From Candidatus Bathyarchaeia archaeon (GTDB taxonomy: Archaea > Thermoproteota > CALKCG01 > B24), in NCBI GenBank assembly GCA_038870975.1, contig JAVZJD010000002.1:320001-384000 (forward strand): a DNA stretch of 64,000 nucleotides, in the 5' to 3' direction. The position numbers were made by a program, and so were the translations under genes. The notes below the pieces were generated by a model that was given only the letters and a program-made list of their open reading frames with translations, searched no databases and had not been told where the DNA came from. Shown in pieces: positions 11,060-59,427 of the stretch. Numbering within the stretch: the stretch's first letter is position 1; the number at the start of each line of letters is the position of its first letter.

Positions 11060-12433
11060 TTGGCTGAGCTGAAGGTAGAGCATAGGGCTTTAAGTATAGC
11101 GGGTTCTGACAGTTCAGCTGGCGCTGGGGTACAGGCTGATTTAAAGACTTTCTCAGCTTTAGGGGTTTACGGTTTAACGGTTATTACGTGTGTAACCGCT
11201 CAGAACACACAAGGCGTCTACAGAGTTTGTCCTCTACCGTCAAAATTAATTGAAGCCCAGTATAGAGCAGTATTCGAAGATATCGGTTTTGATTCTGTTA
11301 AAACAGGGCTACTACCTTCAAAGCCTATCGTGGAGAAGGTCGTTAAGCTACTTGAGAAAAACGATAAGCCTATCGTGGTAGACCCTGTATACGTGGCTGG
11401 GACGGGGTTTAAACTTACATCAGAAGACGCTTATAAGGCTATTATTGAAAAACTCATACCGATAGCCACAGTTGTAACACCGAATGTTAACGAAGCATCT
11501 AAAATAGTCGGTTTTAAAATTGAAAGTGTCGATTATGCTGAGAAAGCCGCTAAAGTGATAGCATCCTATGGTCCAAAGGCTGTGGTTGTTAAAGGTGGAC
11601 ATTTAAAAGAGGGGCCCATAGATGTAGTTTTTTGCGACGGGGAAATTATTAAACTCATCGGCTCTAGGGTTGAAGGGACATTTCACGGGGCGGGATGTTG
11701 TTTTTCAGCCGCTATAGCAGCTTGGCTTGCTAAGGGACAAAATCTTCAAGAAGCTATTAAGAAGGCTAAAAGCTTCGTAGAGAATGCTATAGTTCACCAT
11801 CATTCTATTGGTTTAGGCATTAAACCAGTCAATCCTACAGCGTTCCTGCATATGGATGCTGAAAAGTGGGATGTCATTATGAATGTTAAATCTGCTGTTA
11901 AACTTTTGGAGGAAAAACCCATTGTTTCAAAACTTATACCTGAAACTTCATCAAACTTAGTTATGGCATTAAGTTATGCGAGGAGCCTTTCCGAAGTGGC
12001 TGGAATACCTGGTAGAATAGTTAGAATCCAAGATAGAGTTAAAGCGGTTATGGAGCCCAGCTTCGGTGTTTCACGACATGTGGCCTCGACTGTTCTAACG
12101 GCTATGAGGTTTAATCCAGCTGTAAGAGCTGGTATGAACATAAGGATGGAGAGACGTATACTTGAGGTATGTCAAAAACTTGGATTCAAAATTTCAAGTT
12201 ACGATAGGAGACTTGAGCCTATTGAAATTAAAACAAGAGAAGGACTAACGACGAGTTGGGGCGCTGAGCAGGCGATCAAAGCCTTGAGTGGAAAAGTTCC
12301 AGATATTATATACCATGATGGAGATTGGGGTAAAGAGCCCATGATAACTGTCTTAGGTGTAGATGCTTTAGACGTAGCATTAAAGGTAATTAAGATTGCT
12401 GAAGCTTTAGAATCCCATTTTAGTGTAGAATAG
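11060..12433 (+). CDS. thiD: Bifunctional HMP/HMP-P kinase and thiamine-phosphate synthase (ThiDN)
   Basis: SIAGSDSSAGAGVQADLKT, VKGGH, HGAGCCFSAAI; C-terminal ThiN domain (LIPETSSN, FGVSRHVA, GDWGKEPMI). Confidence 0.93.
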   Translation: MAELKVEHRALSIAGSDSSAGAGVQADLKTFSALGVYGLTVITCVTAQNTQGVYRVCPLPSKLIEAQYRAVFEDIGFDSVKTGLLPSKPIVEKVVKLLEKNDKPIVVDPVYVAGTGFKLTSEDAYKAIIEKLIPIATVVTPNVNEASKIVGFKIESVDYAEKAAKVIASYGPKAVVVKGGHLKEGPIDVVFCDGEIIKLIGSRVEGTFHGAGCCFSAAIAAWLAKGQNLQEAIKKAKSFVENAIVHHHSIGLGIKPVNPTAFLHMDAEKWDVIMNVKSAVKLLEEKPIVSKLIPETSSNLVMALSYARSLSEVAGIPGRIVRIQDRVKAVMEPSFGVSRHVASTVLTAMRFNPAVRAGMNIRMERRILEVCQKLGFKISSYDRRLEPIEIKTREGLTTSWGAEQAIKALSGKVPDIIYHDGDWGKEPMITVLGVDALDVALKVIKIAEALESHFSVE

Positions 12434-14149
12434 ACCCACAGATTCTTCTACAAATTCACTATCTATGTAGCCTAGAGGAGAAACCGTTTCACATATTCTC
12501 TTAGCCAGTTTTAAACCGCTGATCTTAAATCCCTCTCTCATTTTAAACCTATTCTTATCTCTAAGAATATCCAACCCCAATCTTATGAGTTCAGCAGAAC
12601 TAAATCCATAGCCAACCGATTTTAACGTCTCCTCCACCAATGTCGGATTATATATTCCTCTAGCGAAAAAGCAGACTACTAGACTTGAAAGAATTTGACG
12701 CCACGATTCTTCCTCCAGCAGGTAGTCGGCAACTTCTTCCACAGATGGTTTTCTTTTCTCCTTTAGAAGCTTTTGATCCAAGCTATAGCCAGCTGAATCT
12801 AAATGACTATGTCTAGCACCAGTTAGAAATCCTATATGAGTTGCTGGACCAGTATGATAACCTGGCATTTCATTTCCACCGAATGATAGAGCGTAGTCGC
12901 TCCCGCCGTATTTATTCGAAGCATAGAATACACCCATTGAAAGATCCCTGTAGAACTCCGTCGGTTGCTCTACAATAGCCCTCATTAATCTGAGGTATGT
13001 TCCCCAATCACCCCATTTAGGCTTTAAACCTGCTGTTTCAGTTTCAGAAATCAAATTTTTCTCAAATGCCTCAGTCATCCATGCTAAAACTACGCCGGTG
13101 GATATCGCGTCGATTCCTAAAACCTCAACCTCATGGAAGAGTTTGAGCATACCCTTCGTGTCGGATATACCGAGCATAGAGCCTAGAGCATAAATTAATT
13201 CGTAATCGTAGGATATCATGGTAGTCTTGTAGAAGTACGGCTCATCTTCATATGGTTCTCTCAAAGCTGCTAAATGTATACAAGCAACAGGGCAGTGACT
13301 ACATGCAACTCTACGCCCCAGATAGTTCTCAGCAAGAAATTCACCTGAGATTTTTTCAGCGCCTTCGAACTTAGCCTCTTTAAGGTTTCTAGTTGGGAGT
13401 CCTCCTATTTCATTTAATGGAGAAACATTCATAGAGGTTCCAATATCGTGGTACTTACGCATAATCGCAGTTTTAGTAGCTGCATTGAATATTTCGTCGT
13501 ATAGAGTTCTATAAAGTTTAGCGTCTTTAACCAGTATTACGCCTCTTCCTGATACTACCAACGCTTTTAACTTCTTACTACCGAAGACTGCGCCAAGACC
13601 CAATCTACCGAAGTGTCTATAAGTTTCTGTTGTCACACATGCATATCTAACCAATTTTTCGCCAGCAACTCCTATACGCATTATAGATCTAATACCAGCA
13701 TCAGGTTCTCTCTCCCGTATAACTCTTCCAACCGTAAGACTACTTCCAACACCCCACAAACCTGAGGCATCTCTGAAGAAGACCCTTTCACCGTGAACTG
13801 CTACGTAGATCGGAGTTTCACTAGCCCCTTTAATAACTATAGCATCGTATCCTGCTGACCTTATCGCGATAGCGCTTCTACCGCCTGCATGACTTTCGCC
13901 GAGATTTCCGGTTAAAGGCGACTTAAATAACGCAATTGTCTTAGAAGCCATAGGGTATAAACCTGTGAGAGGACCAACAGCGAAAATTATGACGTTTTCA
14001 GGTCCAAGAGGGTCTGCACCCTTTGGCAACTCTTCCTCTAAGAGTTTTATACCAACGCCGACCCCTCCAATTCTATCGGCGAATAGTTCACATTTATCAA
14101 TCCAGCTTCGTTTTCTAGATAGGTCTATGTAGAGAATCCTTCCATTCAT
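12407..14149 (-). CDS. Tungsten aldehyde:ferredoxin oxidoreductase family, large subunit
   Basis: KSPLTGNLGESHAGG, GLGAVFGSKKLKA, CSHCPVAC, DYELIYALG, GIDAISTG, EMPGYH. Confidence 0.9.
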   Translation of the reverse strand: MNGRILYIDLSRKRSWIDKCELFADRIGGVGVGIKLLEEELPKGADPLGPENVIIFAVGPLTGLYPMASKTIALFKSPLTGNLGESHAGGRSAIAIRSAGYDAIVIKGASETPIYVAVHGERVFFRDASGLWGVGSSLTVGRVIREREPDAGIRSIMRIGVAGEKLVRYACVTTETYRHFGRLGLGAVFGSKKLKALVVSGRGVILVKDAKLYRTLYDEIFNAATKTAIMRKYHDIGTSMNVSPLNEIGGLPTRNLKEAKFEGAEKISGEFLAENYLGRRVACSHCPVACIHLAALREPYEDEPYFYKTTMISYDYELIYALGSMLGISDTKGMLKLFHEVEVLGIDAISTGVVLAWMTEAFEKNLISETETAGLKPKWGDWGTYLRLMRAIVEQPTEFYRDLSMGVFYASNKYGGSDYALSFGGNEMPGYHTGPATHIGFLTGARHSHLDSAGYSLDQKLLKEKRKPSVEEVADYLLEEESWRQILSSLVVCFFARGIYNPTLVEETLKSVGYGFSSAELIRLGLDILRDKNRFKMREGFKISGLKLAKRICETVSPLGYIDSEFVEESVGLFYTKMGF

Positions 14150-14559
14150 TATTTTCCCACCTCTTCGAACGCAAGAATCCTATAGGGGCAGTAGTTCACA
14201 CAATAGCCACAATATAGACATACTATAGGCTTATTAAGCTCATAGTTCCAGAATATTGCTCCAAATGGACATGCATCTCTGCAGTGTCCACATCCGATAC
14301 ATTTATCTGTGTTTAGTCTAACTCCACCCCCCTCCCGAACGATTAAAGCGCCAGTAGGACAGACCTTCTGACAGGGTGGGTCTGGACAGGCTCTACATAC
14401 GATGACAGTAAAGCCCCTTTCGATCCCACCAGTCGATTTAACGAGTATTGCTGAAAAACCTAAGCCTCCATATCCAAGCCTCCTAGTACATGCAAACATA
14501 CAAAGCTGACAACCTACGCAACGCTCACTATCGATTACGGATATTCTTTTAGCACACAT
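14149..14559 (-). CDS. 4x[4Fe-4S] ferredoxin-like AOR small subunit
   Basis: Four Cys groups (CVGCQLCMFAC, CRACPDPPCQKVC, CIGCGHCRDAC, CLYCGYCVNYC); likely ATG at 14559; stop overlaps the AOR start. Confidence 0.88.
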   Translation of the reverse strand: MCAKRISVIDSERCVGCQLCMFACTRRLGYGGLGFSAILVKSTGGIERGFTVIVCRACPDPPCQKVCPTGALIVREGGGVRLNTDKCIGCGHCRDACPFGAIFWNYELNKPIVCLYCGYCVNYCPYRILAFEEVGK

Positions 14560-14671
14560 ACTGCAGATTTTCCTGAGGAACGTATTATTAAGCCTTTGCA
14601 TGGTTTATTGAAAAAACAGGTGGAGGATAAAATTCATAAACTTCCTTCTATGTAGCATATATTCGAGTCCC

Positions 14672-14929: not shown

Positions 14930-16192
14930 ATGGCAAAGCGAATTATAAGTACCTACTACGGTGATAAAAGGAGAAGTTTTAAAGTAGATGAAGGTAGAAT
15001 TCTGGATATCATAGAACCACGTCGCATAAAACCTAGTAAATCTCTAGATGCCATGATTATTGAGTCTCTAAAGAAGGCCAGAGGAGGAATGAGGATCAAA
15101 GACTACGTTAAACCAGATACAACTGTCACCATAATTTCCGAGGACAATACAAGGGTATGTCCCGTAAGTAGAATACTTCCCTATGTATTAGCCGAATTGA
15201 AAGAAGCGGGTGTAAAAGCTGAAAACATTAAGATAGTAATGGCTTTGGGGACTCATAGACCTATGACCAAGGAAGAACTTGAGAATAAACTTGGAAAAGA
15301 AATAGTGGAAGAATATGAGGTGATAAACCATATTTGGAAGAATGAAGATGATCTTATCGAGATAGGTCTATCAAATTCAGGAACACCCGTGAAAGTCAAT
15401 AAGCACGTACTAAACGCAGAGTTTAAGATAGGTATTGGCAATGTTATTCCACATAGAGTTTCCGGATACTCTGGTGGCGCTAAGATTATTCAACCAGGTA
15501 TATGTGGAGCTGAGATCACTGGAGAAACACATTGGAAGGCCGCTTTGACACCCATAGAAAAGATGCTGGGGGTTGTTGAAAACCCCGTGCGATGGGAAAT
15601 GGAAAACATTGCCGCTAAAGTTGGTTTAAATGCTATAGTAAACACGGTATTGAATGGAAATAAAGAAGTCGTCTCCGTTGTATTCGGAAATTATGTTAAA
15701 GCCCACAGGGAGGCAGTCAATATTGCAGATTCGATTTACAAATTTAAATCAATGGAGGCCGATATAGTCGTAGTAGATAGCCATCCGGCAGATTTGGATA
15801 TGTGGCAAGCTGTTAAAGCTCTCTTCCCAGCGGCTTTAGCCGTCAAAAGAGGAGGAATCATAATCTTTCTAACACCATGCCCTGAAGGTGTTGCAAAGGA
15901 ACATCCTGAAGTTGAAAAGCTCGGTTATATACCCATATCCACTATGAAGAAGATGGTTGAAGATGGAACGATGGACGACCTTATAGCTGCCGCGCACATT
16001 GTTATGGTTAGAGAGGTCTTAGATAAAGCTAAGTGCATATTAGTTTCAGATGGTATAAGTAGAAGTTTAGCATATGGGCTTGGTTTCGATTATGCTGATG
16101 ATCTGCAAGAAGCAGTGGATGAAGCTTTGAGGGAAAAACCAGATGGCAAAATGCTAATCATGCGTATGGGCGCTGAACTCACCCTAGGTTAA
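14930..16192 (+). CDS. larA: LarA-family nickel-pincer racemase/epimerase
   Basis: EDNTR, ALGTHRPMT, IPHRVSGYSGGAKIIQPG, ETH, WQAVKA, CPEG. Confidence 0.88.
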   Translation: MAKRIISTYYGDKRRSFKVDEGRILDIIEPRRIKPSKSLDAMIIESLKKARGGMRIKDYVKPDTTVTIISEDNTRVCPVSRILPYVLAELKEAGVKAENIKIVMALGTHRPMTKEELENKLGKEIVEEYEVINHIWKNEDDLIEIGLSNSGTPVKVNKHVLNAEFKIGIGNVIPHRVSGYSGGAKIIQPGICGAEITGETHWKAALTPIEKMLGVVENPVRWEMENIAAKVGLNAIVNTVLNGNKEVVSVVFGNYVKAHREAVNIADSIYKFKSMEADIVVVDSHPADLDMWQAVKALFPAALAVKRGGIIIFLTPCPEGVAKEHPEVEKLGYIPISTMKKMVEDGTMDDLIAAAHIVMVREVLDKAKCILVSDGISRSLAYGLGFDYADDLQEAVDEALREKPDGKMLIMRMGAELTLG

Positions 16193-49011: not shown

Positions 49012-50003
49012 ATGAATTATCCATAATTTCAGAGAAGGTTTCCAGGGAAATCTGTAAGGTTATCGGGGAACTTAACATTCCAGATGCCTTACGCGAATCT
49101 AGTTATCATCTTCTAAAAGCTGGTGGTAAAAGACTTAGACCGTTTGTAATTGTAAAGTCTTATGAAGCATGTGGTGGAACCGGCTCCAAGCCATATCCAG
49201 CCGCTGTGGCAGTTGAAATTCTACACACGTTCACGTTGATTCACGATGATATAATCGACCGTGATGAAACCAGAAGGGGAGTCCCGACTGTTCACATACT
49301 CTGGGGGATTCCACAAGCCATAATATCAGGCGATATGCTCTTCGCATTGGTTTATAAAATTCTTTCTAGAAATATGAGAGCTGAAGGCATTAGAGACTCC
49401 ATTATAGTGGAAGTTATCGAGAGATTTTCCGAAGCTCTGATAGACATCTGTGCGGGACAAACTATGGATATGAAACTGGCTGAGAAGCCAATACGCGGTG
49501 TAACAATTGAGGAGTATATGAGAATGATTAACCTTAAGACGGCTAGACTCTACATGGTTTCCGCAGAAATAGGCGCACTCATAGCTGAGGCTTCTCCAAA
49601 GGAGGTTGAGGCGTTGAGAAACTACGGACTGTATTCTGGTATGGCTTTCCAAATGGTCGACGATATACTTGGGGTTTCAGGCGTCGAAAAAGAGCTTGGC
49701 AAACCTGTCGGAAGCGATATAAGAGAGGGGAAAAAGACCATAGTCGTTCTCGAGGCTTTAAGTAGACTTGATGATTGGGGGAGGCGAAGACTTATGGAGG
49801 TTTTAGGTAGCCGAACTGCTTCTAAAGAGCAGATACTAGAAGCCATAAGACTCATAGAGTCTTCAGGCGCTATAGAGCATGCCAAAAAACTCGCCCATGA
49901 GTATTCTCTAAAGGCAAAAAAAGCCTTAAGTTTACTTCCCAAGACAGAAGCTAGAGACCTTCTAGAAGCTTTAACGGACTTCATAGTTGAACGGAGATAC
50001 TAG
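48996..50003 (+). CDS. Geranylgeranyl diphosphate synthase (polyprenyl synthetase)
   Basis: GGKRLRP, FTLIHDDIIDRDETRRG, KT, FQMVDDILG, GKPVGSDIREGK. Confidence 0.93.
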   Translation: MANLMNELSIISEKVSREICKVIGELNIPDALRESSYHLLKAGGKRLRPFVIVKSYEACGGTGSKPYPAAVAVEILHTFTLIHDDIIDRDETRRGVPTVHILWGIPQAIISGDMLFALVYKILSRNMRAEGIRDSIIVEVIERFSEALIDICAGQTMDMKLAEKPIRGVTIEEYMRMINLKTARLYMVSAEIGALIAEASPKEVEALRNYGLYSGMAFQMVDDILGVSGVEKELGKPVGSDIREGKKTIVVLEALSRLDDWGRRRLMEVLGSRTASKEQILEAIRLIESSGAIEHAKKLAHEYSLKAKKALSLLPKTEARDLLEALTDFIVERRY

Positions 50004-50067
50004 GACCTTCAATTGGATTAAGTTAGAGGTAAAAATTTAGAGAGCCTAATGAGGTATAGTAACTAGT

Positions 50068-51351
50068 ATGAGCCTAACACTTAAAAACGGTTTAATAGTT
50101 ACGCCAAGAGGTGTTTTGAAGGGAGACTTAGTTGTTAAAAATGGATATATTAGTAAGATAGGCGGCTCTACTGAGACTGTAGGAGACGTTTTAAATTGCA
50201 ATGGTTGCTATATAGTCCCGGGTTTTAGAGAGCAACACATGCATGACGTCAACGGTTTAACTAAATTTTTGACGGATCCGGGTAGAATAGGATGGGTTTC
50301 TAGGTCATTAGTAGCTCAAGGAGTCACAGCGTTTCACCTAGCTACCATAGCTATGCCGATTGAAGACCTTCTGGAGTACTTAGAGACTTGTAGGCTCTAC
50401 ATGGAGTCCGGTGAGAATGGTGTTGAAGGAGCTAGGTTTGAAGGTGCTTACGTAGAGGGTACCTTCATAAATGTAGAATGTGCAGGTGCTCAACCCAAGG
50501 AATACATAGTTTCCCCGGGTTCTACCGAAGCTAGGGCTATAGTTGATAGTCTTTTGAAGACTGGAGTTGTCAAATTCATGAATATAGTTCCTGATTTCGG
50601 AGTAGACCTTATCAAGTATACGGCTTCTAAAGGTATTATAGTTGGGTGTGGACATACGAAAGCTCCAGCAAAAAAGTTGGAGGAGGCCTTCAATTCTGGT
50701 TTGAAATTCATAGTCCATATAACTAATGGCGCGATGGGGCAATCTTTCAAACCTTTCAACGGTGGTGGAGCATATGAGGCAGCATTAACTCTGCCTGTAT
50801 ATGTGGAGATTATCGTAGACGGCTATCACGTAGATTTTCGCTATGTCTCAGACATTATTGAGAGGAGGATTTCTAAAAATAGATTAAATGAAATTATAGC
50901 TATAACGGATTCTGCTTTTCCGATTAGAGAAGAAGTACCTACAGGAGAATTCAAATTGTTTTCGACGATATGCTGTAAACATCCTATTGAAGATGTTCTA
51001 GTAGTAAAGGGCTATTTTGATAGAGGAGAAGTAAAACCAGCACCTCCAAATACACTTTGTTCAAGTCTACTAACTATGAATAAGGCTTTCAGAAACCTCT
51101 TAAATATGTTTACAGTTAAACATTCAGGCTTCATGATAGACGCCGATTCCAGAAGCCTAGACGAATCCGTGAGACTTACGTCAATGTTTACATCATCCAA
51201 TCAAGCTGAATTAGAGGGGTCGAAAGATAGAGGAATTATTGAAAAGGGAAAAGTTGCTGATTTAACCGTTATAAGGATTGAGGGTGAACCTGGATATTTT
51301 GATGTCGAAATTGAAGCTACAATTGTCGGTGGGAGAATTTTCGAAATATAG
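50068..51351 (+). CDS. Divergent NagA-like amidohydrolase (N-acetyl amino-sugar deacetylase family)
   Basis: PGFREQHMH, YVEGTFIN, GAQ, GHT, HITN, IVDGYHV, ITDS, SLLTM, GKVADL. Confidence 0.75.
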   Translation: MSLTLKNGLIVTPRGVLKGDLVVKNGYISKIGGSTETVGDVLNCNGCYIVPGFREQHMHDVNGLTKFLTDPGRIGWVSRSLVAQGVTAFHLATIAMPIEDLLEYLETCRLYMESGENGVEGARFEGAYVEGTFINVECAGAQPKEYIVSPGSTEARAIVDSLLKTGVVKFMNIVPDFGVDLIKYTASKGIIVGCGHTKAPAKKLEEAFNSGLKFIVHITNGAMGQSFKPFNGGGAYEAALTLPVYVEIIVDGYHVDFRYVSDIIERRISKNRLNEIIAITDSAFPIREEVPTGEFKLFSTICCKHPIEDVLVVKGYFDRGEVKPAPPNTLCSSLLTMNKAFRNLLNMFTVKHSGFMIDADSRSLDESVRLTSMFTSSNQAELEGSKDRGIIEKGKVADLTVIRIEGEPGYFDVEIEATIVGGRIFEI

Positions 51352-51408
51352 TTAAAAAAAGAGTTTTATTTTAAGTAGTTTAAATAGATAATCACTTGGC
51401 TGAAAATA

Positions 51409-52170
51409 TTGTCTGCCATTCGTATCAGTCGAATCGTAAGACCAACTGATTTAAGATGCATTTTAGTTGACTGTAGCTACGACATTACTCTTCAGAATTT
51501 AACGTCTCGAGTAAGCATGGATATTATCAAGAAACTAGACGGTTTAATAGTAGCAGATGCAGATGCAGTGGTCAAAAACCTACATATATTTCTGGGTAAA
51601 ACCTCGCCAACTTACATTTTAAGAGTTGAACCTGAAGTTTTAAGGTCTTCAGATCCAAAGGCTAATGTTGAAGAGACTGTTATAAAGGCATTGCAAATGA
51701 ATTTTTCAGCGATTATTTCCACGTTTACAATAGGCTTTGAAGATGAAAGTATAGACTCCAACAACATGAAGCTCATAACGATGCTTTCTGATGTTTGCTA
51801 CGACTATGGATTACCCCTCATAGTCGAATCGATGCCTTTCGGCGAAAGAGTGAGTAGCGAAAACTATGGAGAGAGCGTGGGATTGGCCGCAAGAATGGCT
51901 GAGGAGGTGGGAGCATCCATAGTAGTAGTGCCACCTCTGAAGACGCTTGAAGATTTAAAAAAGGTTAGAGAATCTATTAAAGCTCATATGCTTCTCATAG
52001 ACCCTTCATCTAAGCTCGTAGTTGAAAGAAGTCTTCGAAGTCTTCCAGAGATTTTATCCGATGCCTTTAACATTGGATTAAACGGCATAGTTCTAAGTAG
52101 CTCTCTCGCCCTTAATGAGCCAGCCAAAATTCTATTGGACATACTGTCGACTGTTCACAGTGGAGGTTGA
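51409..52170 (+). CDS. Degenerate DhnA/LsrF-type class I aldolase paralog
   Basis: YGLPLIVESMP and AARMAEEVGASIVVVP, with Val at the Schiff-base Lys position. Confidence 0.7.
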   Translation: MSAIRISRIVRPTDLRCILVDCSYDITLQNLTSRVSMDIIKKLDGLIVADADAVVKNLHIFLGKTSPTYILRVEPEVLRSSDPKANVEETVIKALQMNFSAIISTFTIGFEDESIDSNNMKLITMLSDVCYDYGLPLIVESMPFGERVSSENYGESVGLAARMAEEVGASIVVVPPLKTLEDLKKVRESIKAHMLLIDPSSKLVVERSLRSLPEILSDAFNIGLNGIVLSSSLALNEPAKILLDILSTVHSGG

Positions 52171-52176
52171 TTTGAA

Positions 52177-53403
52177 TTGGGCTTTGGAAAAATAATCAGG
52201 TTAAATCAGATAATAGATCCATCAGATGGTAGGAGCTTGGTCGTAGCGGCAGACCACGGTTTAATGCTTGGACCTATAAAAGGCGTTATTGATTTAGAGG
52301 CGACTCTTCGAAAAGTCATAGCTGGTGGACCAGACGCCATCCTTTTAAGTCCAGGTCAGGCTAGAAGGTTACACCACCTTTTCACTGGTAAGGGTGCGCC
52401 AGCTATGCTTGTTAGAATAGATTGGACTAATGCGTTTAGAGATAAAACGTATACACTACCGGCTAGAAGCATACAATTCAATAGGGTTACCACTGTTAAA
52501 GATGCTGTTAAAATCGGGGCTTCAGGTGTTGTGACATATCTTTTTCTCGGTTTTGATAGAGAGAAAGATCATATGGCGATGGTTGAAGAATTTTCGGCTG
52601 AATGTGAGTATTGGGATATGCCTTTAATTGTAGAGCCACTACCCATGGGTCCTAGAGTCACTAAGGCAAATTATGTTGATATGGTTAAGATGGCTGTTGA
52701 AAAAGCCGTAGAGCTTGGAGCCGATGCGTTAAAGGTTCCGTATACAGGTGACCCATATTCATTCAGGGACATAGTCAAGGTTTCTTCGGGTGTACCAGTC
52801 TTAGTTTTAGGAGGCTATAAGGCGTTGAGTATAAGAGATTCATTAGAGGTTATATCTGAGGTTTTAGAATCAGGCGCCGCTGGAGTAGTTTTCGGTAGGA
52901 ATATTGTTCAAGACCAGAATCCAGATGAGGCCGTTAGACTTATGAAGAGGATAATACATGGAAAGGAGACGGTTACAGACATTCTGAGAGAGAGGATTAA
53001 GCCTCCAGTTAGAATAATAGTCGATGCTGAAAAATGCAGCGGTTGTCGTGTATGTGAAATTGCATGCAGTTTTACTCATGAGAAGGTTTTTGATCCATCG
53101 ATGGCGAGGTTGCGAATTGAAAACTCCAGTACTGGAGTATTATTCACTCCATATGTTTGTACACTATGCTATTCTTGTGTAAACGTCTGTCCGCAGAAGG
53201 CTCTTAAAGTAAACAGCAAAACTGGGGCTGTAGAAGTTTCACCCGAGCTATGTCAAGGTTGCGGAATCTGCGTTGAAACATGTCCGGCTGGAGTTTTAAA
53301 ACTTGTAAATGGAAGGCTCTTCTTATGCGATCTGTGTAACGGTTTACCAGAGTGTGTGAAATGGTGTTCTAGGAATGCTTTAAGGGTAGAAGGAGGCTGG
53401 TAA
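52177..53403 (+). CDS. Class I (DhnA-type) aldolase fused to a 4x[4Fe-4S] ferredoxin domain
   Basis: AADHG, PLIVEP, ELGADALKVPYTG, VLGG, FGRNI; C-terminal CSGCRVCEIAC, CTLCYSCVNVC, CQGCGICVETC, CDLCNGLPECVKWC. Confidence 0.88.
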   Translation: MGFGKIIRLNQIIDPSDGRSLVVAADHGLMLGPIKGVIDLEATLRKVIAGGPDAILLSPGQARRLHHLFTGKGAPAMLVRIDWTNAFRDKTYTLPARSIQFNRVTTVKDAVKIGASGVVTYLFLGFDREKDHMAMVEEFSAECEYWDMPLIVEPLPMGPRVTKANYVDMVKMAVEKAVELGADALKVPYTGDPYSFRDIVKVSSGVPVLVLGGYKALSIRDSLEVISEVLESGAAGVVFGRNIVQDQNPDEAVRLMKRIIHGKETVTDILRERIKPPVRIIVDAEKCSGCRVCEIACSFTHEKVFDPSMARLRIENSSTGVLFTPYVCTLCYSCVNVCPQKALKVNSKTGAVEVSPELCQGCGICVETCPAGVLKLVNGRLFLCDLCNGLPECVKWCSRNALRVEGGW

Positions 53404-53404
53404 T

Positions 53405-55231
53405 TTGAGCCTTTCAGGCAAGGGTTATGCAGGAGGCGTAGTTAAGATAGACCTTTCATCTGAGAGAGTGGAGAAAGCAGAATTATCCCAAAGAGACGCA
53501 TTAATGGTTCTGGGAGGGAAGGGTTTAGGTGCTCTCCTACTGTACAATTCTACACCTAAGTATGTAGACCCTTTAAGCCCTGAAAACCCATTAATATTGG
53601 CAACTGGCCCTTTAACTGGGACACTAGCACCTTCAAGCTGTCGTTTCAGCGTTGTAACTAAAAGCCCTCATACGGGTCTCTTCTTAGACTCCAACTGCGG
53701 AGGTTTCTTCGGCGTTGAGCTTAAAAAGGCTGGTTTTGATGTGGTTATAATCACTGGGAAGGCAAGTCAACTATCAATGGTCATTATAGATGATGGAAGG
53801 GTTCGCATAGAGGAAGCTACCGAACTCCGAGGTGCTAAAACCATGGATGCTGAGAAAAAGGTGAAGAAGAGGCTTAATGAGGAGTTTAGAGTTTTAACTA
53901 TAGGCCCAGCTGGTGAAGAATTAGCCCCTATAGCTGGAATTTTCACAGACCTACGTTGTGCCGGTAGAGGTGGAGCTGGAGCCGTCATGGGCTCTAAAAA
54001 CCTTAAAGCTATCGCAGTCAGAGGAAGTAGGCCAATATCCGTCTACGACCCTGAGGGTTTTGAAAAAGCGTGTTGGAGGGCCCATAGAAGGCTTAGAATG
54101 CATGAAGTCACAGCAAGAAGTCTACCGACCTACGGTACAGTCAACATAATTGAGACGATAAATGAGACGGGGGCGTTGCCGACTAGAAACTTTGAAACAG
54201 GTGTATTCTCAGATACTTGGAAAATATCCGGTTACGAGTGGCGTAAACAACTTTGGAAGAGGGATAAAGCCTGTTTCGGATGCCCTATAGCGTGCAGTAA
54301 ACTGGCATATATATCTGATTACGTAGTAGATGGCCCAGACTATGAAACATTATGGGCATTAGGACCATTATGTGGAGTTTCAGACAGAGAAGCTGTAGTT
54401 TACGCTAATTGGCTGTGTGATGCCTATGGTGTAGATACGATAAGCACAGGTGTTATTGTAAGCTTTGTCATGGAGCTGTATGAGAAGAAGTGCATCGGGA
54501 GTGAAGATATAGATGGAATACATGCCGAGTGGGGTAGTAGCGAAGCTCTATTGAAGCTCGTTGAGAAGATTTGTAAAGGTGATGGAGTTGGAAGGGAACT
54601 CAGACTCGGTGTTAGGAAGCTTAGCATTAAATATGGTTGTGAAGATATAGCTATGCACGTTAAAGGTTTGGAAATGCCAGGTTATGAGCCTAGAGCCGCT
54701 AAAGGCATGGGTCTAGGATACGCCACCTCAGATAGAGGCGCGTGCCATTTAAGGGCGTATACAGCCGATAAAGAGCTCTTAGCCTATGGGGGGGCCGTAG
54801 ACCCAGTTAAAATTGATGGAAAAGCGAGGCTCGTAGTAGACTATCAGAATGAAAAGGCTCTCATAGATTCCACAGGTATATGTTTCTTCGCATCTTTTGC
54901 CTTAACATTTAGGGAAATAGGGGATATGTTAACTACGGCTACGGGTTTACCGCTCGAAGACGCTACCACGTTGAAAACTATTGGAGAAAGAGTGTACAAC
55001 CTTACACGTCTTTTCAATGTGAGGGAGGGTATTAAACGGAAAGACGATTCTTTGCCACGTAGGTTTTTAGAAGAGCCTATGCCAGAGGGGCCTGCTAAAG
55101 GCTCTGTAGTAGAATTAAGTAAAATGTTGGATGAATACTACACCTTGCGAGGGTGGGATGAAAATGGCGTGCCAAAAGTTGAAACATTGAGACGGTTAAA
55201 CTTAGATTTAATACTTAACATAGGGAATTAG
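53405..55231 (+). CDS. Tungsten aldehyde:ferredoxin oxidoreductase
   Basis: KSPHTG, GRGGAGAVMGSKNLKA, CFGCPIAC, GPDYET, DTISTG, EMPGYEPR, RGACH, YYTLRGWD. Confidence 0.92.
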   Translation: MSLSGKGYAGGVVKIDLSSERVEKAELSQRDALMVLGGKGLGALLLYNSTPKYVDPLSPENPLILATGPLTGTLAPSSCRFSVVTKSPHTGLFLDSNCGGFFGVELKKAGFDVVIITGKASQLSMVIIDDGRVRIEEATELRGAKTMDAEKKVKKRLNEEFRVLTIGPAGEELAPIAGIFTDLRCAGRGGAGAVMGSKNLKAIAVRGSRPISVYDPEGFEKACWRAHRRLRMHEVTARSLPTYGTVNIIETINETGALPTRNFETGVFSDTWKISGYEWRKQLWKRDKACFGCPIACSKLAYISDYVVDGPDYETLWALGPLCGVSDREAVVYANWLCDAYGVDTISTGVIVSFVMELYEKKCIGSEDIDGIHAEWGSSEALLKLVEKICKGDGVGRELRLGVRKLSIKYGCEDIAMHVKGLEMPGYEPRAAKGMGLGYATSDRGACHLRAYTADKELLAYGGAVDPVKIDGKARLVVDYQNEKALIDSTGICFFASFALTFREIGDMLTTATGLPLEDATTLKTIGERVYNLTRLFNVREGIKRKDDSLPRRFLEEPMPEGPAKGSVVELSKMLDEYYTLRGWDENGVPKVETLRRLNLDLILNIGN

Positions 55232-55332
55232 GTAGTCTATTTAGTCTCTGTAAATCTGGTGGAGCGCAGAAGAAGATGAAGTCGGGCTGAATTGCCTTTA
55301 AAATTTAAAGTCAGCTTGAGGAATACTGTTCC

Positions 55333-56847
55333 TTGAAAGATTTGACAAGCTATATAGTTAGCGTAGACATAGGTACGACTAATGTTAAAGCGGTAGCCTT
55401 TGATTTAGAAGGGAGGCAGAAGTCTAAAAGAAGTGTTCGATGTAGAGTGTATTCACCTTTTGAAGGATGGGCTGAACAGAGGGCCGATGAGATTTTAAAC
55501 TCCGTGATCGAGGCTGTGAAGTCATGCGTTAAAGATATCGATGGTATAGTGGAGGCTTTAGCATTTAGCTCCCAATTGTACAGTGTCGCATTCATAGACA
55601 AGGATGGAAATATTTTAAGTCCCATACTGAATTGGATGGATTCCAGAAGCAAAATAGAGGCTTTCGAGCTCTCAGAAGCAATAGGGGGGTATGAAATCTA
55701 CCGTAGGACTGGTTGCCATATCAGCCCCATTATGCCAGCCTCTAAAATCTTATGGTTTAGAAAAAATAACCCTGAAATGTTCAGTAGAGTTTACAAGGTT
55801 CTTTCGATAAAAGACTATGTTCTATACAGGCTTTTAAACGTATATGTTATGGATAAAATACTGGCTTCAGCTACTGCGCTATTCAACATACATAGGGGTA
55901 GATGGGACTCAGAAATAGTTGAAACAATAGGTTTAGACATGGATAAGCTTCCAGAGGTCGTTGAGCCAGAATCCATAGTGGGTCAATTGAAGGGGTTCTA
56001 TGCGGAGAAGATCGGACTTCCCAACGGAACTCCAGTAGTCTGTGGGGGTGGAGACGGTATGCTTCAGAATTTAGGATTGGGGGTTCTGAAAAGTGGTATA
56101 GCGGCTTTAAACATAGGGACAAGTGGTGCAGTTAGAGTATCTTCTAACCGTATAACTCTTGACAAATCGAGAAAAGCAAGGTTTTTCTGCCACAGTTTGG
56201 CTGAGGGATATTGGTGCATAGGTGGTGCTATTAACTCAGCTGGATTATCCTTTGAATGGTTTGCTGAAAACTTCCTCGGTGGAGATTTCAATCGTATTGA
56301 AGTTGAAGCTTCTAAAGCCAAGCCCGGTTCTAATGGTTTAATATTTCTACCGTATCTTTTAGACGAGAGAGCACCGCTTTGGTGCACTGCAGCTAAAGCC
56401 GTTCTATACGGTTTAAGTTTAAAACATAGTCTTTCAGATGTCACTAGAGCCGTCTTAGAAGGTGTTGTATTCGCATTAAACCATATCAGGATTGTTCTTG
56501 AGAAGTATGTCCCTCCAGTAAGGGAAATTAGAGCTGGTGGTGGAGGAGCTAAAATAGACCTTCTAAATCAAATTCAAGCAGACGTTTTTCAAACTCCTGT
56601 CTTCTTAACATCTACTGAAGAAAGCTCTTCTCTAGGTGCAGCTATTCTAGCGGCTAAGACTCTAGGCTATTACGGGAGTTTAAACGATGCATGCAACTCT
56701 ACTGTTAAAATAACTAAAGTATTCAAGCCAATTCCTGAGAACAGTATAGAATACTACAAGCTATTTGAAAAATACTGTAAGATTTCAAACCATTTATACA
56801 AATACTTCTTCAAGCCCTCTGAGAATCTCTACAGTTCTCAGGTTTAA
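55333..56847 (+). CDS. FGGY-family carbohydrate kinase (gluconokinase/xylulokinase-like)
   Basis: DIGTTNVK, WMDSRS, GGGDG, IGTSG, FLPYLLDERAP, GGGA. Confidence 0.9.
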   Translation: MKDLTSYIVSVDIGTTNVKAVAFDLEGRQKSKRSVRCRVYSPFEGWAEQRADEILNSVIEAVKSCVKDIDGIVEALAFSSQLYSVAFIDKDGNILSPILNWMDSRSKIEAFELSEAIGGYEIYRRTGCHISPIMPASKILWFRKNNPEMFSRVYKVLSIKDYVLYRLLNVYVMDKILASATALFNIHRGRWDSEIVETIGLDMDKLPEVVEPESIVGQLKGFYAEKIGLPNGTPVVCGGGDGMLQNLGLGVLKSGIAALNIGTSGAVRVSSNRITLDKSRKARFFCHSLAEGYWCIGGAINSAGLSFEWFAENFLGGDFNRIEVEASKAKPGSNGLIFLPYLLDERAPLWCTAAKAVLYGLSLKHSLSDVTRAVLEGVVFALNHIRIVLEKYVPPVREIRAGGGGAKIDLLNQIQADVFQTPVFLTSTEESSSLGAAILAAKTLGYYGSLNDACNSTVKITKVFKPIPENSIEYYKLFEKYCKISNHLYKYFFKPSENLYSSQV

Positions 56848-57458
56848 ACCGACATCTCTGGAGGAGGTGTTTTCAACGCTTCCCCTATGGATAAAACTTT
56901 CGATTTCCTAAACCCCACATGTCTCAAAGGAGTGATACGCTTAGCCTCGTTATATATATCGGAGGCTATTTTACCTAAGATCATTTCCTGGACAAACTGG
57001 TCGAAGTTTAAATTCTTAGCCTTTTCTTCAATTATCTTGAACATAAGCATTCTTATGGCCTTCTTCTGAGAGGAGTTTATTCTATGTGCCGTACAAGCTA
57101 TCGGGTAGACTCTTATAAGCGCACCATCTTTAGTTTTGACGTCTATTATAGCGTCTATTTTAGAGCTACCCCTACGTACAAGGCTTCTCAAGAAGTCTCT
57201 AGCGTACTCATGTCCACTGAAGAACGTATCGGCTCTAAGTTCTTTAGTTTCATTTATTCTAAAACGCATTATAATCGTCTGGTGGGCCGGGTCTTGAGTT
57301 AAATCGAAAAGTGTAGCCTCCACTGTTCTACCTACAGGATTCTGGCCCTCCGTAACCGGTATGGATGGTAATTCAACTTCGCCGAAGTATTTAGGCGAAT
57401 AGACTCTATACCAGATTTTAGCTTTCCACTTATCTCTAGCTCGCCGCGTCTTAGACAT
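56844..57458 (-). CDS. rps3ae: 30S ribosomal protein S3Ae (eS1)
   Basis: RDKWKAKIWY, GRTVE, LRSLVRRGSSKID, PLRHVGFRKSK. Confidence 0.95.
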   Translation of the reverse strand: MSKTRRARDKWKAKIWYRVYSPKYFGEVELPSIPVTEGQNPVGRTVEATLFDLTQDPAHQTIIMRFRINETKELRADTFFSGHEYARDFLRSLVRRGSSKIDAIIDVKTKDGALIRVYPIACTAHRINSSQKKAIRMLMFKIIEEKAKNLNFDQFVQEMILGKIASDIYNEAKRITPLRHVGFRKSKVLSIGEALKTPPPEMSV

Positions 57459-57511
57459 AGTGTTCAGCTTTCCAAAGAAAGAAAACTCTTTTAATTAAAT
57501 ATTTCCCTCAA

Positions 57512-57570
57512 GATGACTTTATATCCATTAATAAAAGTCCATCGGATGACCATAGGAGGAGGCAGTCCAT
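57512..57570. repeat. Tandem GATGAC-N18/N13-AGTCCAT units, each hairpin-capable
   Basis: GATGAC at 57512 and 57545; AGTCCAT at 57536 and 57564. Confidence 0.35.
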
Positions 57571-57629
57571 AAGTAACATGGGAATACGCGGTGAAATTCC
57601 ACGTTTAAGTTGAACACGTTTCAAAGAAT

Positions 57630-57884
57630 TTACTTCACCTCAACATATTTGAGGCATTTTTCAGCCGTGGAGAAACACGTCAATAAGTCATCCAGAGTAT
57701 TTAGAAGAGTTTCCACTCTAACGTTAGATTCTATCTTTACAGTTATCGTTGAATCCGACAATTCGGCTTTTATAGTGAGCCCCGATGGGGGGTTTTTATT
57801 GTCTGGTTCCAAGGCTTTGAAAAGAGCCAAGGCTTTAACCCTATCTCCTAAATGTATCTTTAGTTCAACTACATCCGGTTCCAT
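57630..57884 (-). CDS. pcc1: KEOPS complex subunit Pcc1
   Basis: LFKALEPDN...LLNTLDDLL; conserved position between the DHH gene and rps3ae. Confidence 0.8.
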   Translation of the reverse strand: MEPDVVELKIHLGDRVKALALFKALEPDNKNPPSGLTIKAELSDSTITVKIESNVRVETLLNTLDDLLTCFSTAEKCLKYVEVK

Positions 57885-57972
57885 ACCCTATTTACAGTAT
57901 AACTGCCTTACTCATAAAAGTCTTAAGTAGGATACTTAAATGTTTGAGCTTAATCCATATAGGGTTTCAAAT

Positions 57973-59427
57973 TTATGGTACAGCCTGTTGTTTCCTTAAA
58001 AGACTGGAGATTATTCTTAAGAAGTCGTTTCTCTTTTCAAATGGTATTAATGCTCCAGCTGCTACGTCATGCCCACCTCCAGACCCGCCAACGGATAGAG
58101 CCGCTTCCGCTACTATGTGTGCTATGTTGACGCCAGTATTTACAAGGGATCTAGGAGCCCTTGCGGACACTTTAACCATGCCTTCTGGCGTATCTGTGAA
58201 GGCTATTAAAGGCTTCACATAATTGGATGACAGTATGCTTGCTACTGTACTCAGGAGAGAGTCTGGAATTAAACCCGAACCGTTTACTATGATAAGTTCA
58301 TCGGTGTTTATAAGCCTAGATGGGTTTTGAACCACGCTCTCTATGAGCGTGGCTAAGCTTTTCCTATAGGTATTGAGCACGGCATACGCTTCTTCAAGGG
58401 TGTTTTTACTCCTATCGCCCATAGCGATTGCTATTCCAAGTCCATATTTGCCGAGCCTACCACATGCATTTAACAGGGCGGAGTATTCTCTACAATCACG
58501 TAATGGCGTAAATCTCTGCTCATTGGTAAGTATGTAGGATTCTCCGACTAGTTGCACAATCTCTTCTTGAGTTACACCTTTAGAAGCCATGTATGCAGTT
58601 AAATTGTCCAACAGTTTCATTTCTTCGTCTTCAGCTAAATCTGCAGGTGTCCTCCAGAAGTGGCCAGTTTTAACAGGTATATCTATGCTCGCTAAGAAGG
58701 CTAAGGCTTTATCCTCCTCTCCAGATATACCCGGTATGAAAGGTGTTAAGGTTAACGCTAAAGATTCGTGTAGACGCTTGGTTTCACTACCAGCTAATGT
58801 AAGACCTTTTTCGACCTTCAACAGTCCCGATTCGACGGCATCTTTGACGATGATTTCATTAAACCCCACGAGCCTTCTCTCCTCATTTCTATTCTGCATA
58901 TCTCCAACTGCTCCTACGACGGCTAAAGGTGAAAGGTCGATGTTTGAAGGGTTAAGCGATTTAGCCGTTATATAGGCTACTCCTGAACTACTAATGTCTA
59001 TAGCCCCATTTAATTTGAAGAGGTGGGGGTTAACGTGAACACCTTTAAATCCTTCAACGGATTCTGACACAGGCTGATGGTGGTCGAGGACGATTATTCT
59101 TTCACATCCGTCAAGCTTTGAAATAGCATCTAGATTGCTAGACCCCATGTCGGTTAACACCGCTACACGAGCCTCTCCAAGACACTCTTTTAAGGCGGAT
59201 TCTTCAAACTGTTTAATTGCCCTGATTTGAAAGGGCACATTCAACCTCGTTAAAGCCTTCCCTATTATCGCTCCAGAGGCTAATCCGTCACAGTCTATAT
59301 GACATAGAATGACGAAAGAGAAGCCCTCTGAAGCCTTCTCCACTATAAATTTAGCGGCTTCTTCAGAGGCTTTGATAAGCCTTTGGAAACTCCACTCTCT
59401 AGTGGCATTAGGTGAACCCCGGCTCAA
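57973..59427 (-). CDS. DHH/DHHA1 phosphoesterase (archaeal RecJ/GAN-like)
   Basis: HIDCDG, TDMGS, LDHH, GAVGDMQ, LNACGR, SAR, GGGHDVAAGA. Confidence 0.9.
   Translation of the reverse strand: MSRGSPNATREWSFQRLIKASEEAAKFIVEKASEGFSFVILCHIDCDGLASGAIIGKALTRLNVPFQIRAIKQFEESALKECLGEARVAVLTDMGSSNLDAISKLDGCERIIVLDHHQPVSESVEGFKGVHVNPHLFKLNGAIDISSSGVAYITAKSLNPSNIDLSPLAVVGAVGDMQNRNEERRLVGFNEIIVKDAVESGLLKVEKGLTLAGSETKRLHESLALTLTPFIPGISGEEDKALAFLASIDIPVKTGHFWRTPADLAEDEEMKLLDNLTAYMASKGVTQEEIVQLVGESYILTNEQRFTPLRDCREYSALLNACGRLGKYGLGIAIAMGDRSKNTLEEAYAVLNTYRKSLATLIESVVQNPSRLINTDELIIVNGSGLIPDSLLSTVASILSSNYVKPLIAFTDTPEGMVKVSARAPRSLVNTGVNIAHIVAEAALSVGGSGGGHDVAAGALIPFEKRNDFLRIISSLLRKQQAVP

Follow-up and report, generated by a model that had tools for sequence, protein, structure and literature searches.

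Class II tungsten-containing oxidoreductases (WORs) consist of WorL and the four-[4Fe-4S] subunit WorS, whose genes are adjacent, and ferredoxin is their presumed electron carrier (PMC13328260). Pyrococcus furiosus WOR5/ASOR (PDB 6x1o and 6x6u) and Caldicellulosiruptor bescii GOR likewise pair a large subunit of the aldehyde oxidoreductase (AOR) family with a four-cluster small subunit. AorABC of Aromatoleum aromaticum (8c0z) combines the large subunit AorB and the four-cluster subunit AorA with the FAD/NAD subunit AorC, and AorA's C-terminal helix drives filament formation (PMC10413684). Among class I aldolases, DhnA-type enzymes are decamers, and the catalytic residues of the Thermoproteus tenax fructose-1,6-bisphosphate aldolase (FBPA) are Tyr146, Asp24, and Lys177 (PMC4881948). 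A covalent union of an aldolase with the oxidizer of its aldehyde product is found in RhaEW (YuxG), a bifunctional L-rhamnulose-1-phosphate aldolase/L-lactaldehyde dehydrogenase in which the aldolase needs the dehydrogenase half for its turnover (PMC3870299). Here, we describe a different aldolase fusion in a stretch of 64,000 nucleotides (the window) from a Candidatus Bathyarchaeia archaeon (contig JAVZJD010000002.1, positions 320,001–384,000), in which one reading frame joins a class I aldolase to a polyferredoxin domain. The fusion gene is followed by an AOR gene and preceded by the gene of an aldolase-like protein that lacks the catalytic residues, hereafter the pseudo-aldolase.

What is new in this trio of genes is a putative class II WOR whose small subunit is fused to an aldolase and whose third subunit would be the pseudo-aldolase. 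No description of an aldolase–WorS fusion or of the trio was found in the literature on aldolases, tungsten and AOR enzymes, polyferredoxins, or Bathyarchaeota. The 2026 classification of WORs (PMC13328260) does not use the word aldolase in its main text, and of at least 21 occurrences in its supplements, the two examined concern unrelated aldolases. On balance, the three genes probably encode one variant of a class II WOR, in which a ketose phosphate would be cleaved to dihydroxyacetone phosphate (DHAP) and a neutral aldehyde, the aldehyde oxidized, and the electrons passed to ferredoxin.

Organization and distribution of the aldolase–iron-sulfur fusion

The three-gene unit (51409–55231, plus strand) is tightly packed and encodes the pseudo-aldolase (51409–52170; 253 residues, with a weak DeoC match at E 5e-6), the fusion protein (52177–53403; 408 residues in a single unbroken frame), and the AOR-family large subunit, WorL (53405–55231; 608 residues, AFOR_N and AFOR_C), all on the plus strand. 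Six nucleotides separate the first two genes and one separates the fusion from the AOR, the fusion stop codon TAA occupying 53401–53403 and the AOR start codon TTG beginning at 53405. The motif GGAGGT (52163–52168) lies within the pseudo-aldolase gene ahead of the fusion start, and GGAGG (53391–53395) lies within the 3′ end of the fusion gene ahead of the AOR start; the AOR is translationally coupled to the fusion. Unlike these two genes, the pseudo-aldolase gene has no Shine-Dalgarno sequence at its TTG start. A TATA-like box read from the sequence, TTTAAATA (51379–51386, plus strand), lies approximately 27 nucleotides 5′ of this start, and the two features together would suit an archaeal operon whose first gene is leaderless. 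By analogy with the general layout of archaeal promoters, the box is likely the promoter of the three-gene operon, with a leaderless first gene. Judged by its closest named relatives (85% identity), the source is a member of the Bathyarchaeia; its genome comprises 1.85 Mb in two contigs and holds seven AOR-family genes.

The fusion protein reads as two domains in succession, DeoC/DhnA followed by Fer4-type. Residues 1–272 (52177–52992, plus strand) form the aldolase domain, of which PF01791 (DeoC/DhnA) spans residues 22–245 (E 4.9e-34), and residues ∼272–408 (52990–53403, plus strand) form the polyferredoxin domain, with Fer4-type matches over residues ∼280–404. An AlphaFold2 model of the fusion was of high confidence (predicted local distance difference test [pLDDT] 90.4, predicted template modeling score 0.82), and the linker between the halves was modeled as a confident helix. 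A preliminary description of this DNA had reported one frame joining an aldolase barrel to an iron-sulfur domain, with the AOR beginning one nucleotide past its stop codon, and both observations hold.

That description had also named a search for the same domain architecture as a check and, among the outcomes that would undo the case, a fusion created by misassembly or by the isolated loss of a stop codon. Matches to the fusion form at least 120 clusters at 90% identity, drawn from assemblies at NCBI, JGI, ENA, and Logan. All of the best 120 matches, each representing one such cluster, are DeoC plus Fer4 proteins of 403 to 440 residues; at 50% clustering, about five to seven full-length fusion representatives result. 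Named sources among these best 120 include Bathyarchaeia, Thermoprotei, Brockarchaeota, Loki-, Sigyn-, and Promethearchaeota, and Calditrichaeota, so that the architecture occurs in both archaea and bacteria. A scan of species-representative genomes adds Hadarchaeota, Anaerolineales/Chloroflexia, Ignavibacteriales, Bacteroidota, Zhuqueibacterota, and Phycisphaerae. A 99%-identical fusion of 408 residues is present on three contigs, and the fusion was found in 8/8 genomes of the window's own family, with patchy occurrence in the sister families (0/4, 0/2, and 1/3). An artefact or lost stop codon, already refuted by the best 120 clusters with their independent sources, the family genomes, and the bacterial occurrences, is further disfavored by the confidently modeled linker helix and must be regarded as exceedingly improbable. 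Database labels of the fusion proteins read either "4Fe-4S binding protein" or "fructose-bisphosphate aldolase." The sole broken copy encountered is on a Phycisphaerae contig (L034:1588-3233), where the coding sequence of the fusion spans two frames; this suggests a frameshift or an assembly error.

Synteny was followed on nine contigs obtained by exact protein match and seventeen from the genome scan, and 24 loci were surveyed systematically. The AOR gene lies directly 3′ of the fusion in all 21 surveyed loci in which the contig continues, and three loci outside this survey (L100, L101, and L102) likewise contain the trio. The 21 trio-linked AORs form one clade (Shimodaira–Hasegawa-like approximate likelihood ratio test [SH-aLRT] 100), apart from the six other AORs of the source genome.

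The C-terminal domain carries 16 cysteines in four groups of the CxxCxxCxxxC type, invariant or nearly so in 40 relatives and enough for four [4Fe-4S] clusters. Its closest solved matches over residues 272–404 are WOR5-S (6x6u_B, E 6e-28) and AorA (8c0z_C, E 1e-21), together with 9mqx_E. Foldseek superposed this half on 8c0z_C and 6x6u_B with a root-mean-square deviation of 1.8 Å, with 41% identity to WOR5-S in that alignment. Within the window, the domain also resembles a standalone four-cluster subunit (14149–14598, minus strand; 32% identity, E 7e-13), as the preliminary description had noticed. Standalone homologues elsewhere are ∼135 to 250 residues long as called, mostly 150 to 195, and 31 to 48% identical to the fusion domain; an AOR gene stands beside them almost without exception, by which they match the WorS/AorA subunits of class II WORs and AorABC (PMC13328260, PMC10413684). 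In sequence and fold, then, the fused domain is an AOR small subunit of the WorS/AorA type. As a separate observation, the standalone subunit gene in the window (14149–14601, minus strand) accompanies a second AOR-family gene (12407–14149, minus strand).

Compared with WOR5 and GOR, the WorS of the trio bears an N-terminal class I aldolase of 270 residues, the pseudo-aldolase gene is a fixed third member, and WorL falls in a separate clade, close to AorB and to the P. furiosus AOR (PfAOR). AorABC is similar in its AorB-like large subunit and AorA-like four-cluster domain, whereas the trio has no adjacent gene for an AorC-like FAD/NAD subunit, with no flavoprotein gene in positions 50000–58000 of the window, and adds the aldolase and the pseudo-aldolase. 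The AorA-type filament helix is absent from the fusion in both sequence and AlphaFold2 model: the protein ends 11 residues past its last cysteine, and the model terminates in a strand (residues 402–405). RhaEW is comparable in its covalent joining of an aldolase to the oxidizer of its product; it is NAD-dependent, however, while the present system is built of Pfam DeoC, Fer4, and AFOR domains, which differ from those described for RhaEW, carries the aldolase on the electron-transfer subunit rather than on the catalytic oxidoreductase, and is predicted to use ferredoxin. Homology and synteny point to a WorL–WorS heterodimer, to tungsten, and to ferredoxin as carrier in this system. The central proposal of the preliminary description, an aldolase tethered to an AOR, thus gains strong comparative support from the WorS/AorA-type domain, the invariant AOR neighbor, and the single AOR clade.

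Active site of the aldolase half and the predicted reaction

Residues 1–272 of the fusion have ADH (2-amino-3,7-dideoxy-D-threo-hept-6-ulosonate) synthase and FBPA as their best solved relatives, led by MJ0400 (2qjg, E 2e-42). Foldseek returned template modeling scores of 0.88 to 0.89 to ADH synthase (2qji and 2qjg) and 0.87 to FBPA (1ojx). In common with T. tenax FBPA and MJ0400, the domain has a TIM barrel, the Schiff-base lysine, the aspartate, and the GG and GRN phosphate loops. Conservation was assessed in an alignment of 40 fusions from archaea and bacteria (37 to 85% identity). Asp26, His27, Gly212–Gly213, and Gly240–Arg241 are invariant (40/40), and Lys186, the Schiff-base lysine, is kept in 38/40; Lys186 aligns with Lys177 and Asp26 with Asp24 of T. 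tenax FBPA.

The fusions differ from FBPA and MJ0400 in the Tyr146 region, besides carrying the fused redox domain. In HMMER alignments, LPMG of the fusion (Leu155–Gly158) lies under YPRG of both MJ0400 (2qjg) and wild-type T. tenax FBPA (1ojx, "VVWSYPRG"), indicating that the catalytic tyrosine is absent from the family. The position equivalent to Tyr146 is Leu, Ile, Met, or Val in 40/40 fusions, and the neighboring position, equivalent to Arg148, is Met in the window and variable across the family. The preliminary description had placed IVEP, with its glutamate, under YPRG; this register is misaligned by two residues. The distinctive glutamate itself is real: Glu153 is family-specific and kept in 38/40 fusions, although it aligns with Trp144 of T. 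tenax FBPA and with a Met in MJ0400. A glutamate also occupies this position in PDB 1w8s, where it stems from engineering (variant W144E/Y146F). Glu153 is lost jointly with Lys186, in the single lineage that has neither. As read from these alignments, the fusion family is a natural variant of the DhnA aldolase active site that lacks the tyrosine and bears a glutamate. With the lysine, the aspartate, and the phosphate loops kept in 38/40 fusions, it is plausible that this half generates the aldehyde.

The closest unfused relative with the lysine, P0124, shows 47% identity. Other aldolase genes were observed as well. A Hadarchaeota contig (L037:5610-8081) encodes a further Cgl0159-like/DeoC aldolase of 291 residues with the lysine kept and an "IIEPL" motif, its gene lying with that of an FGGY kinase divergently 5′ of the trio. 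In the source genome, outside the window, a DhnA-type aldolase gene remnant with an in-frame TGA (G000:C2:549876-550418) resembles an intact paralog (G000:C1:430221-431066). Unfused aldolase genes near AOR and iron-sulfur gene pairs at L040 and L042 proved unrelated, one being of the YPRG type and one of another type.

The AOR of the trio scores 517 bits against PfAOR (1aor) and 473 bits against AorB, and its clade adjoins a Desulfofundulus AOR and proteobacterial AORs whose genes follow standalone iron-sulfur subunit genes; the proteobacterial group is taken to be AorB-like. It holds equivalents of PfAOR T243, E313, Y427, and H448 and of the cluster ligands Cys288/291/295/494 (residues as listed in PMC13328260). 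Motifs of an aromatic pocket, C-x-F-x-x-F and CH..Y, are present, and through these shared motifs the pocket residues would map onto AorB Phe511, Phe514, and Tyr468. In AorB, these aromatics hold neutral or aromatic substrates, and they are absent from clades that oxidize glyceraldehyde 3-phosphate (PMC10413684). A pocket of this kind, together with an aldolase that has no arginine beside the tyrosine position, argues for a neutral aldehyde product and hence for a ketose with one phosphate. A supercomplex of fructose-bisphosphate aldolase with glyceraldehyde-3-phosphate ferredoxin oxidoreductase (GAPOR) was ruled out, as the AOR scores 57 bits against an archaeal GAPOR cut-off of 1300; it is also contradicted by the PfAOR-type aromatic pocket and by the arginine missing from the aldolase.

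In the proposed mechanism, the WorL–WorS oxidoreductase would carry the class I aldolase on the N terminus of WorS, with the pseudo-aldolase as structural third subunit. Lys186 would form a Schiff base with a substrate of the ketose-1-phosphate type, bearing one phosphate rather than two, and cleavage, with Glu153 as candidate acid/base in place of the tyrosine, would yield DHAP and a neutral aldehyde or hydroxyaldehyde of short chain length, for instance lactaldehyde, glycolaldehyde, or acetaldehyde. The tethered AOR would then oxidize this aldehyde to the acid at its tungstopterin, and the two electrons would travel to ferredoxin through five [4Fe-4S] clusters, one in the AOR and four in the fused domain. 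We infer that the three proteins assemble, that the tyrosine-less aldolase is active, that the substrate is of this nature, and that the reaction runs in the oxidative direction; the aldehyde may be channeled, kinetically or physically, as the preliminary description had proposed.

Pseudo-aldolase as probable partner and other possible roles for the aldolase fold

Several observations weigh against cleavage of a ketose phosphate coupled to oxidation of the aldehyde. The residue that provides the catalytic tyrosine in FBPA is replaced in every fusion, and LsrF, which also lacks this tyrosine, is a thiolase and not an aldolase. The aldolase domain falls under every NCBIfam equivalog cut-off, those of ADH_synth and Fbpase1_Arch included (177 against 299 for TIGR01949, 156 against 430 for NF040816, and 209 against 241 for PRK07226). 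Lys186 and Glu153 are both gone in the sub-lineage of P0064 and P0066; at the P0064 locus (L019) the full trio is retained and the pseudo-aldolase is also without the lysine, which leaves a trio without any Schiff-base aldolase. Bacterial trio AORs have another residue in place of the tyrosine that follows CH, and the aldehyde pocket thus differs within the clade. Finally, clustering of the neighbors across the 24 loci revealed no constant kinase or isomerase, only lineage-specific sets, with an FGGY kinase in 3 loci.

Alternatively, the N-terminal domain might perform other Schiff-base chemistry, such as acyl transfer after the manner of LsrF or a transaldol reaction like that of ADH synthase, with the AOR acting on another product or co-substrate. 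The nearest solved relative, ADH synthase, is of the transaldolase type; LsrF, like the fusion family, has no residue at the tyrosine position in the alignment; and an FGGY kinase is encoded next door, as LsrK is with LsrF, this kinase scoring 163 bits against a cut-off of 528 for the autoinducer-2 kinase model (NF008187). An LsrF-type reaction, however, gives acetyl-CoA and no aldehyde, which would leave the obligatory AOR unexplained, and the match to LsrF itself is low (59.7 bits pairwise; NF006081, 95.6 against a cut-off of 297). Nor is the kinase a constant neighbor. ADH synthase proper was ruled out by the sub-cut-off score and by a separate, canonical homologue of the YPRG ADH-synthase/FBPA type elsewhere in the genome (G000:C2:256464-257246), which likewise counts against transaldol chemistry in the fusion. 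Other Schiff-base chemistry therefore appears quite unlikely.

The pseudo-aldolase is a DhnA-fold paralog without the Schiff-base lysine, the Asp/His of the DHG motif, or the GG phosphate loop, and all three features are absent in 19/19 aligned orthologues. Its gene encodes ∼255 to 295 residues across loci and lies directly 5′ of the fusion in most; where it was found, it adjoins the fusion in 20 of 21 surveyed loci, and at L020, on an Asgard-like contig, it lies 3′ of the AOR. Every locus with an available flank contains it. In a tree of aldolase domains, the pseudo-aldolases fall outside the lysine-bearing clade (SH-aLRT 98), on long branches and in an unrooted topology. By its sequence, the pseudo-aldolase is a conserved pseudo-enzyme, and it is a fixed third member of the unit that the preliminary finding had not included. 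By analogy with the pairing within DhnA-type decamers, it is probably a structural partner of the aldolase domain.

Complex prediction for the aldolase domain with the pseudo-aldolase gave a score of 0.58, with the best of three controls at 0.00, and lends this pairing weak support. Among 80 solved complexes, 58 attain the mark for a pass, as do 2 among 110 mismatched pairs, and passing scores of 0.60 or below come from 7 of the 80 solved complexes and from both passing mismatches. Contact agreement between runs was at least 97%, with a partner pLDDT of 87 to 89. The predicted pass may reflect likeness to the solved DhnA homodecamers and nothing further.

With one of the two aldolase-fold proteins always dead, these parts might serve mainly as a scaffold, a ring-like hub that gathers several WorS–WorL modules to stabilize them or to let them exchange electrons, their aldol chemistry being irrelevant or unconnected to the AOR substrate. 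The missing canonical tyrosine, the persistence of the full trio at L019 with both aldolase-fold proteins lysine-less, and the predicted pairing would all be in keeping with such a role, as would the decameric state of DhnA-type aldolases (PMC4881948) and the multimeric wires built by AorA-type subunits (PMC10413684). On the other hand, conservation of Lys186 in 38/40 fusions and of the Asp-His pair and both phosphate loops in 40/40 is hard to explain without catalysis or ligand binding. The diverged trio at L019 (L019:6231-10071; 43–44% identity), in which a glutamate replaces the Schiff-base lysine and Glu153 is lost, belongs to a form that occurs as a second copy beside a lysine-bearing trio, in G003 and G005 of the same genus; it is absent from the window's genome. 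A mainly scaffolding role is accordingly considered unlikely. A related and more ambitious arrangement retains catalysis: by analogy with the DhnA decamers, aldolase and pseudo-aldolase might form a hetero-oligomeric ring that carries several WorS–WorL modules, a megadalton "aldol-redox" particle releasing no free aldehyde. Tungsten chemistry would in this particle be coupled to the cleavage of sugar phosphates or, in the opposite direction, to aldol condensation that pulls the reduction of an acid by ferredoxin. This is a speculative and rather doubtful proposal; if true, it would give AOR-family enzymes a new organizing principle and might amount to a new step of carbon assimilation.

Gene neighborhood, direction of the reaction, and significance

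Immediately 3′ of the trio in the window lies a gene for an FGGY-family sugar kinase (55333–56847, plus strand; FGGY_N and FGGY_C) with its own TATA-like box. The kinase falls below the xylulokinase and gluconokinase equivalog cut-offs, and it may be a lineage-specific accessory that supplies the phosphorylated substrate. FGGY kinases occur near the trio in the window and at L033, L037, and L100, and xylose-isomerase-like TIM barrels at L035, L101, L102, and four Anaerolineales loci. The Anaerolineales set of neighbors consists of LarA-like, TauE, TIM-barrel isomerase, and UPF0261 genes. At L101 the trio neighbors a sulfatase, a ribose-5-phosphate isomerase, and a Zn-dependent alcohol dehydrogenase, and at L019 a GH42 glycosidase. 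The gene for the unfused aldolase P0124 (L103) is clustered with those for an ABC sugar transporter, an FGGY kinase, a polyol-type dehydrogenase, and a LarA-like protein. These recurrent sugar-related neighbors favor a catabolic role, without naming the sugar.

Directly 5′ of the trio, a gene for a NagA-like amidohydrolase (50068–51351, plus strand; TIGR00221 at 123 bits against a cut-off of 225) is found in the same place in L100, an 84%-identical relative, and is absent from most trio loci; it is an accessory neighbor at the genus level. A LarA-like gene of the lactate-racemase family (14930–16192, plus strand) is divergent from the second AOR and iron-sulfur pair of the window. LarA-like genes also lie directly 5′ of the trio in the four Anaerolineales loci, in addition to the one clustered with the P0124 gene, and the association of LarA with AOR may be recurrent. 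Genes of the URO-D family (uroporphyrinogen decarboxylase/methyltransferase-like) were observed within a few kilobases of the trio on four archaeal contigs, L001, L003, L019, and L102, twice in two of these, and DUF6785 proteins are encoded in L001 and L102.

The same complex might instead operate in reverse and be assimilatory, with ferredoxin-driven reduction of an acid and condensation of the resulting aldehyde with DHAP to a ketose phosphate, formation of the carbon–carbon bond pulling the reduction. AOR-family enzymes are reversible, and acid reduction is documented for the A. aromaticum AOR and for ethanol formation in Clostridium autoethanogenum (PMC10413684, PMC12727526). Aldolases are freely reversible, tethering would be most useful where the intermediate must stay very low, and the trio is self-contained in having no constant kinase or isomerase beside it. 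The recurrent neighbors are nevertheless catabolic in flavor (sugar kinases, isomerases, a glycosidase, a sulfatase, and ABC sugar uptake in the case of the unfused relative), and neither a phosphatase gene nor one for a downstream biosynthetic step accompanies the trio. The hosts look like fermentative heterotrophs, which would gain reduced ferredoxin from oxidation of the aldehyde, and the reductive direction is thus regarded as improbable. Cleavage of a ketose phosphate followed by oxidation of the aldehyde is the reading that we prefer, and its implications are set out here.

A defined physiological role is available for five of 92 WOR/AOR clades (PMC13328260). In the present case, the gene structure itself would name the upstream enzyme of a dedicated AOR clade, namely its built-in aldolase, and the physiological substrate of the trio AOR becomes a question for the bench: which ketose phosphate is cleaved. 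The trio also offers a conserved pair of enzyme and pseudo-enzyme. Its clade is spread through Bathyarchaeia, Hadarchaeota, Asgard archaea, and several anaerobic bacterial phyla, and the predicted reaction would add a ferredoxin-linked disposal of reactive aldehydes to sugar fermentation in abundant uncultured microbes of sediments and hot springs.

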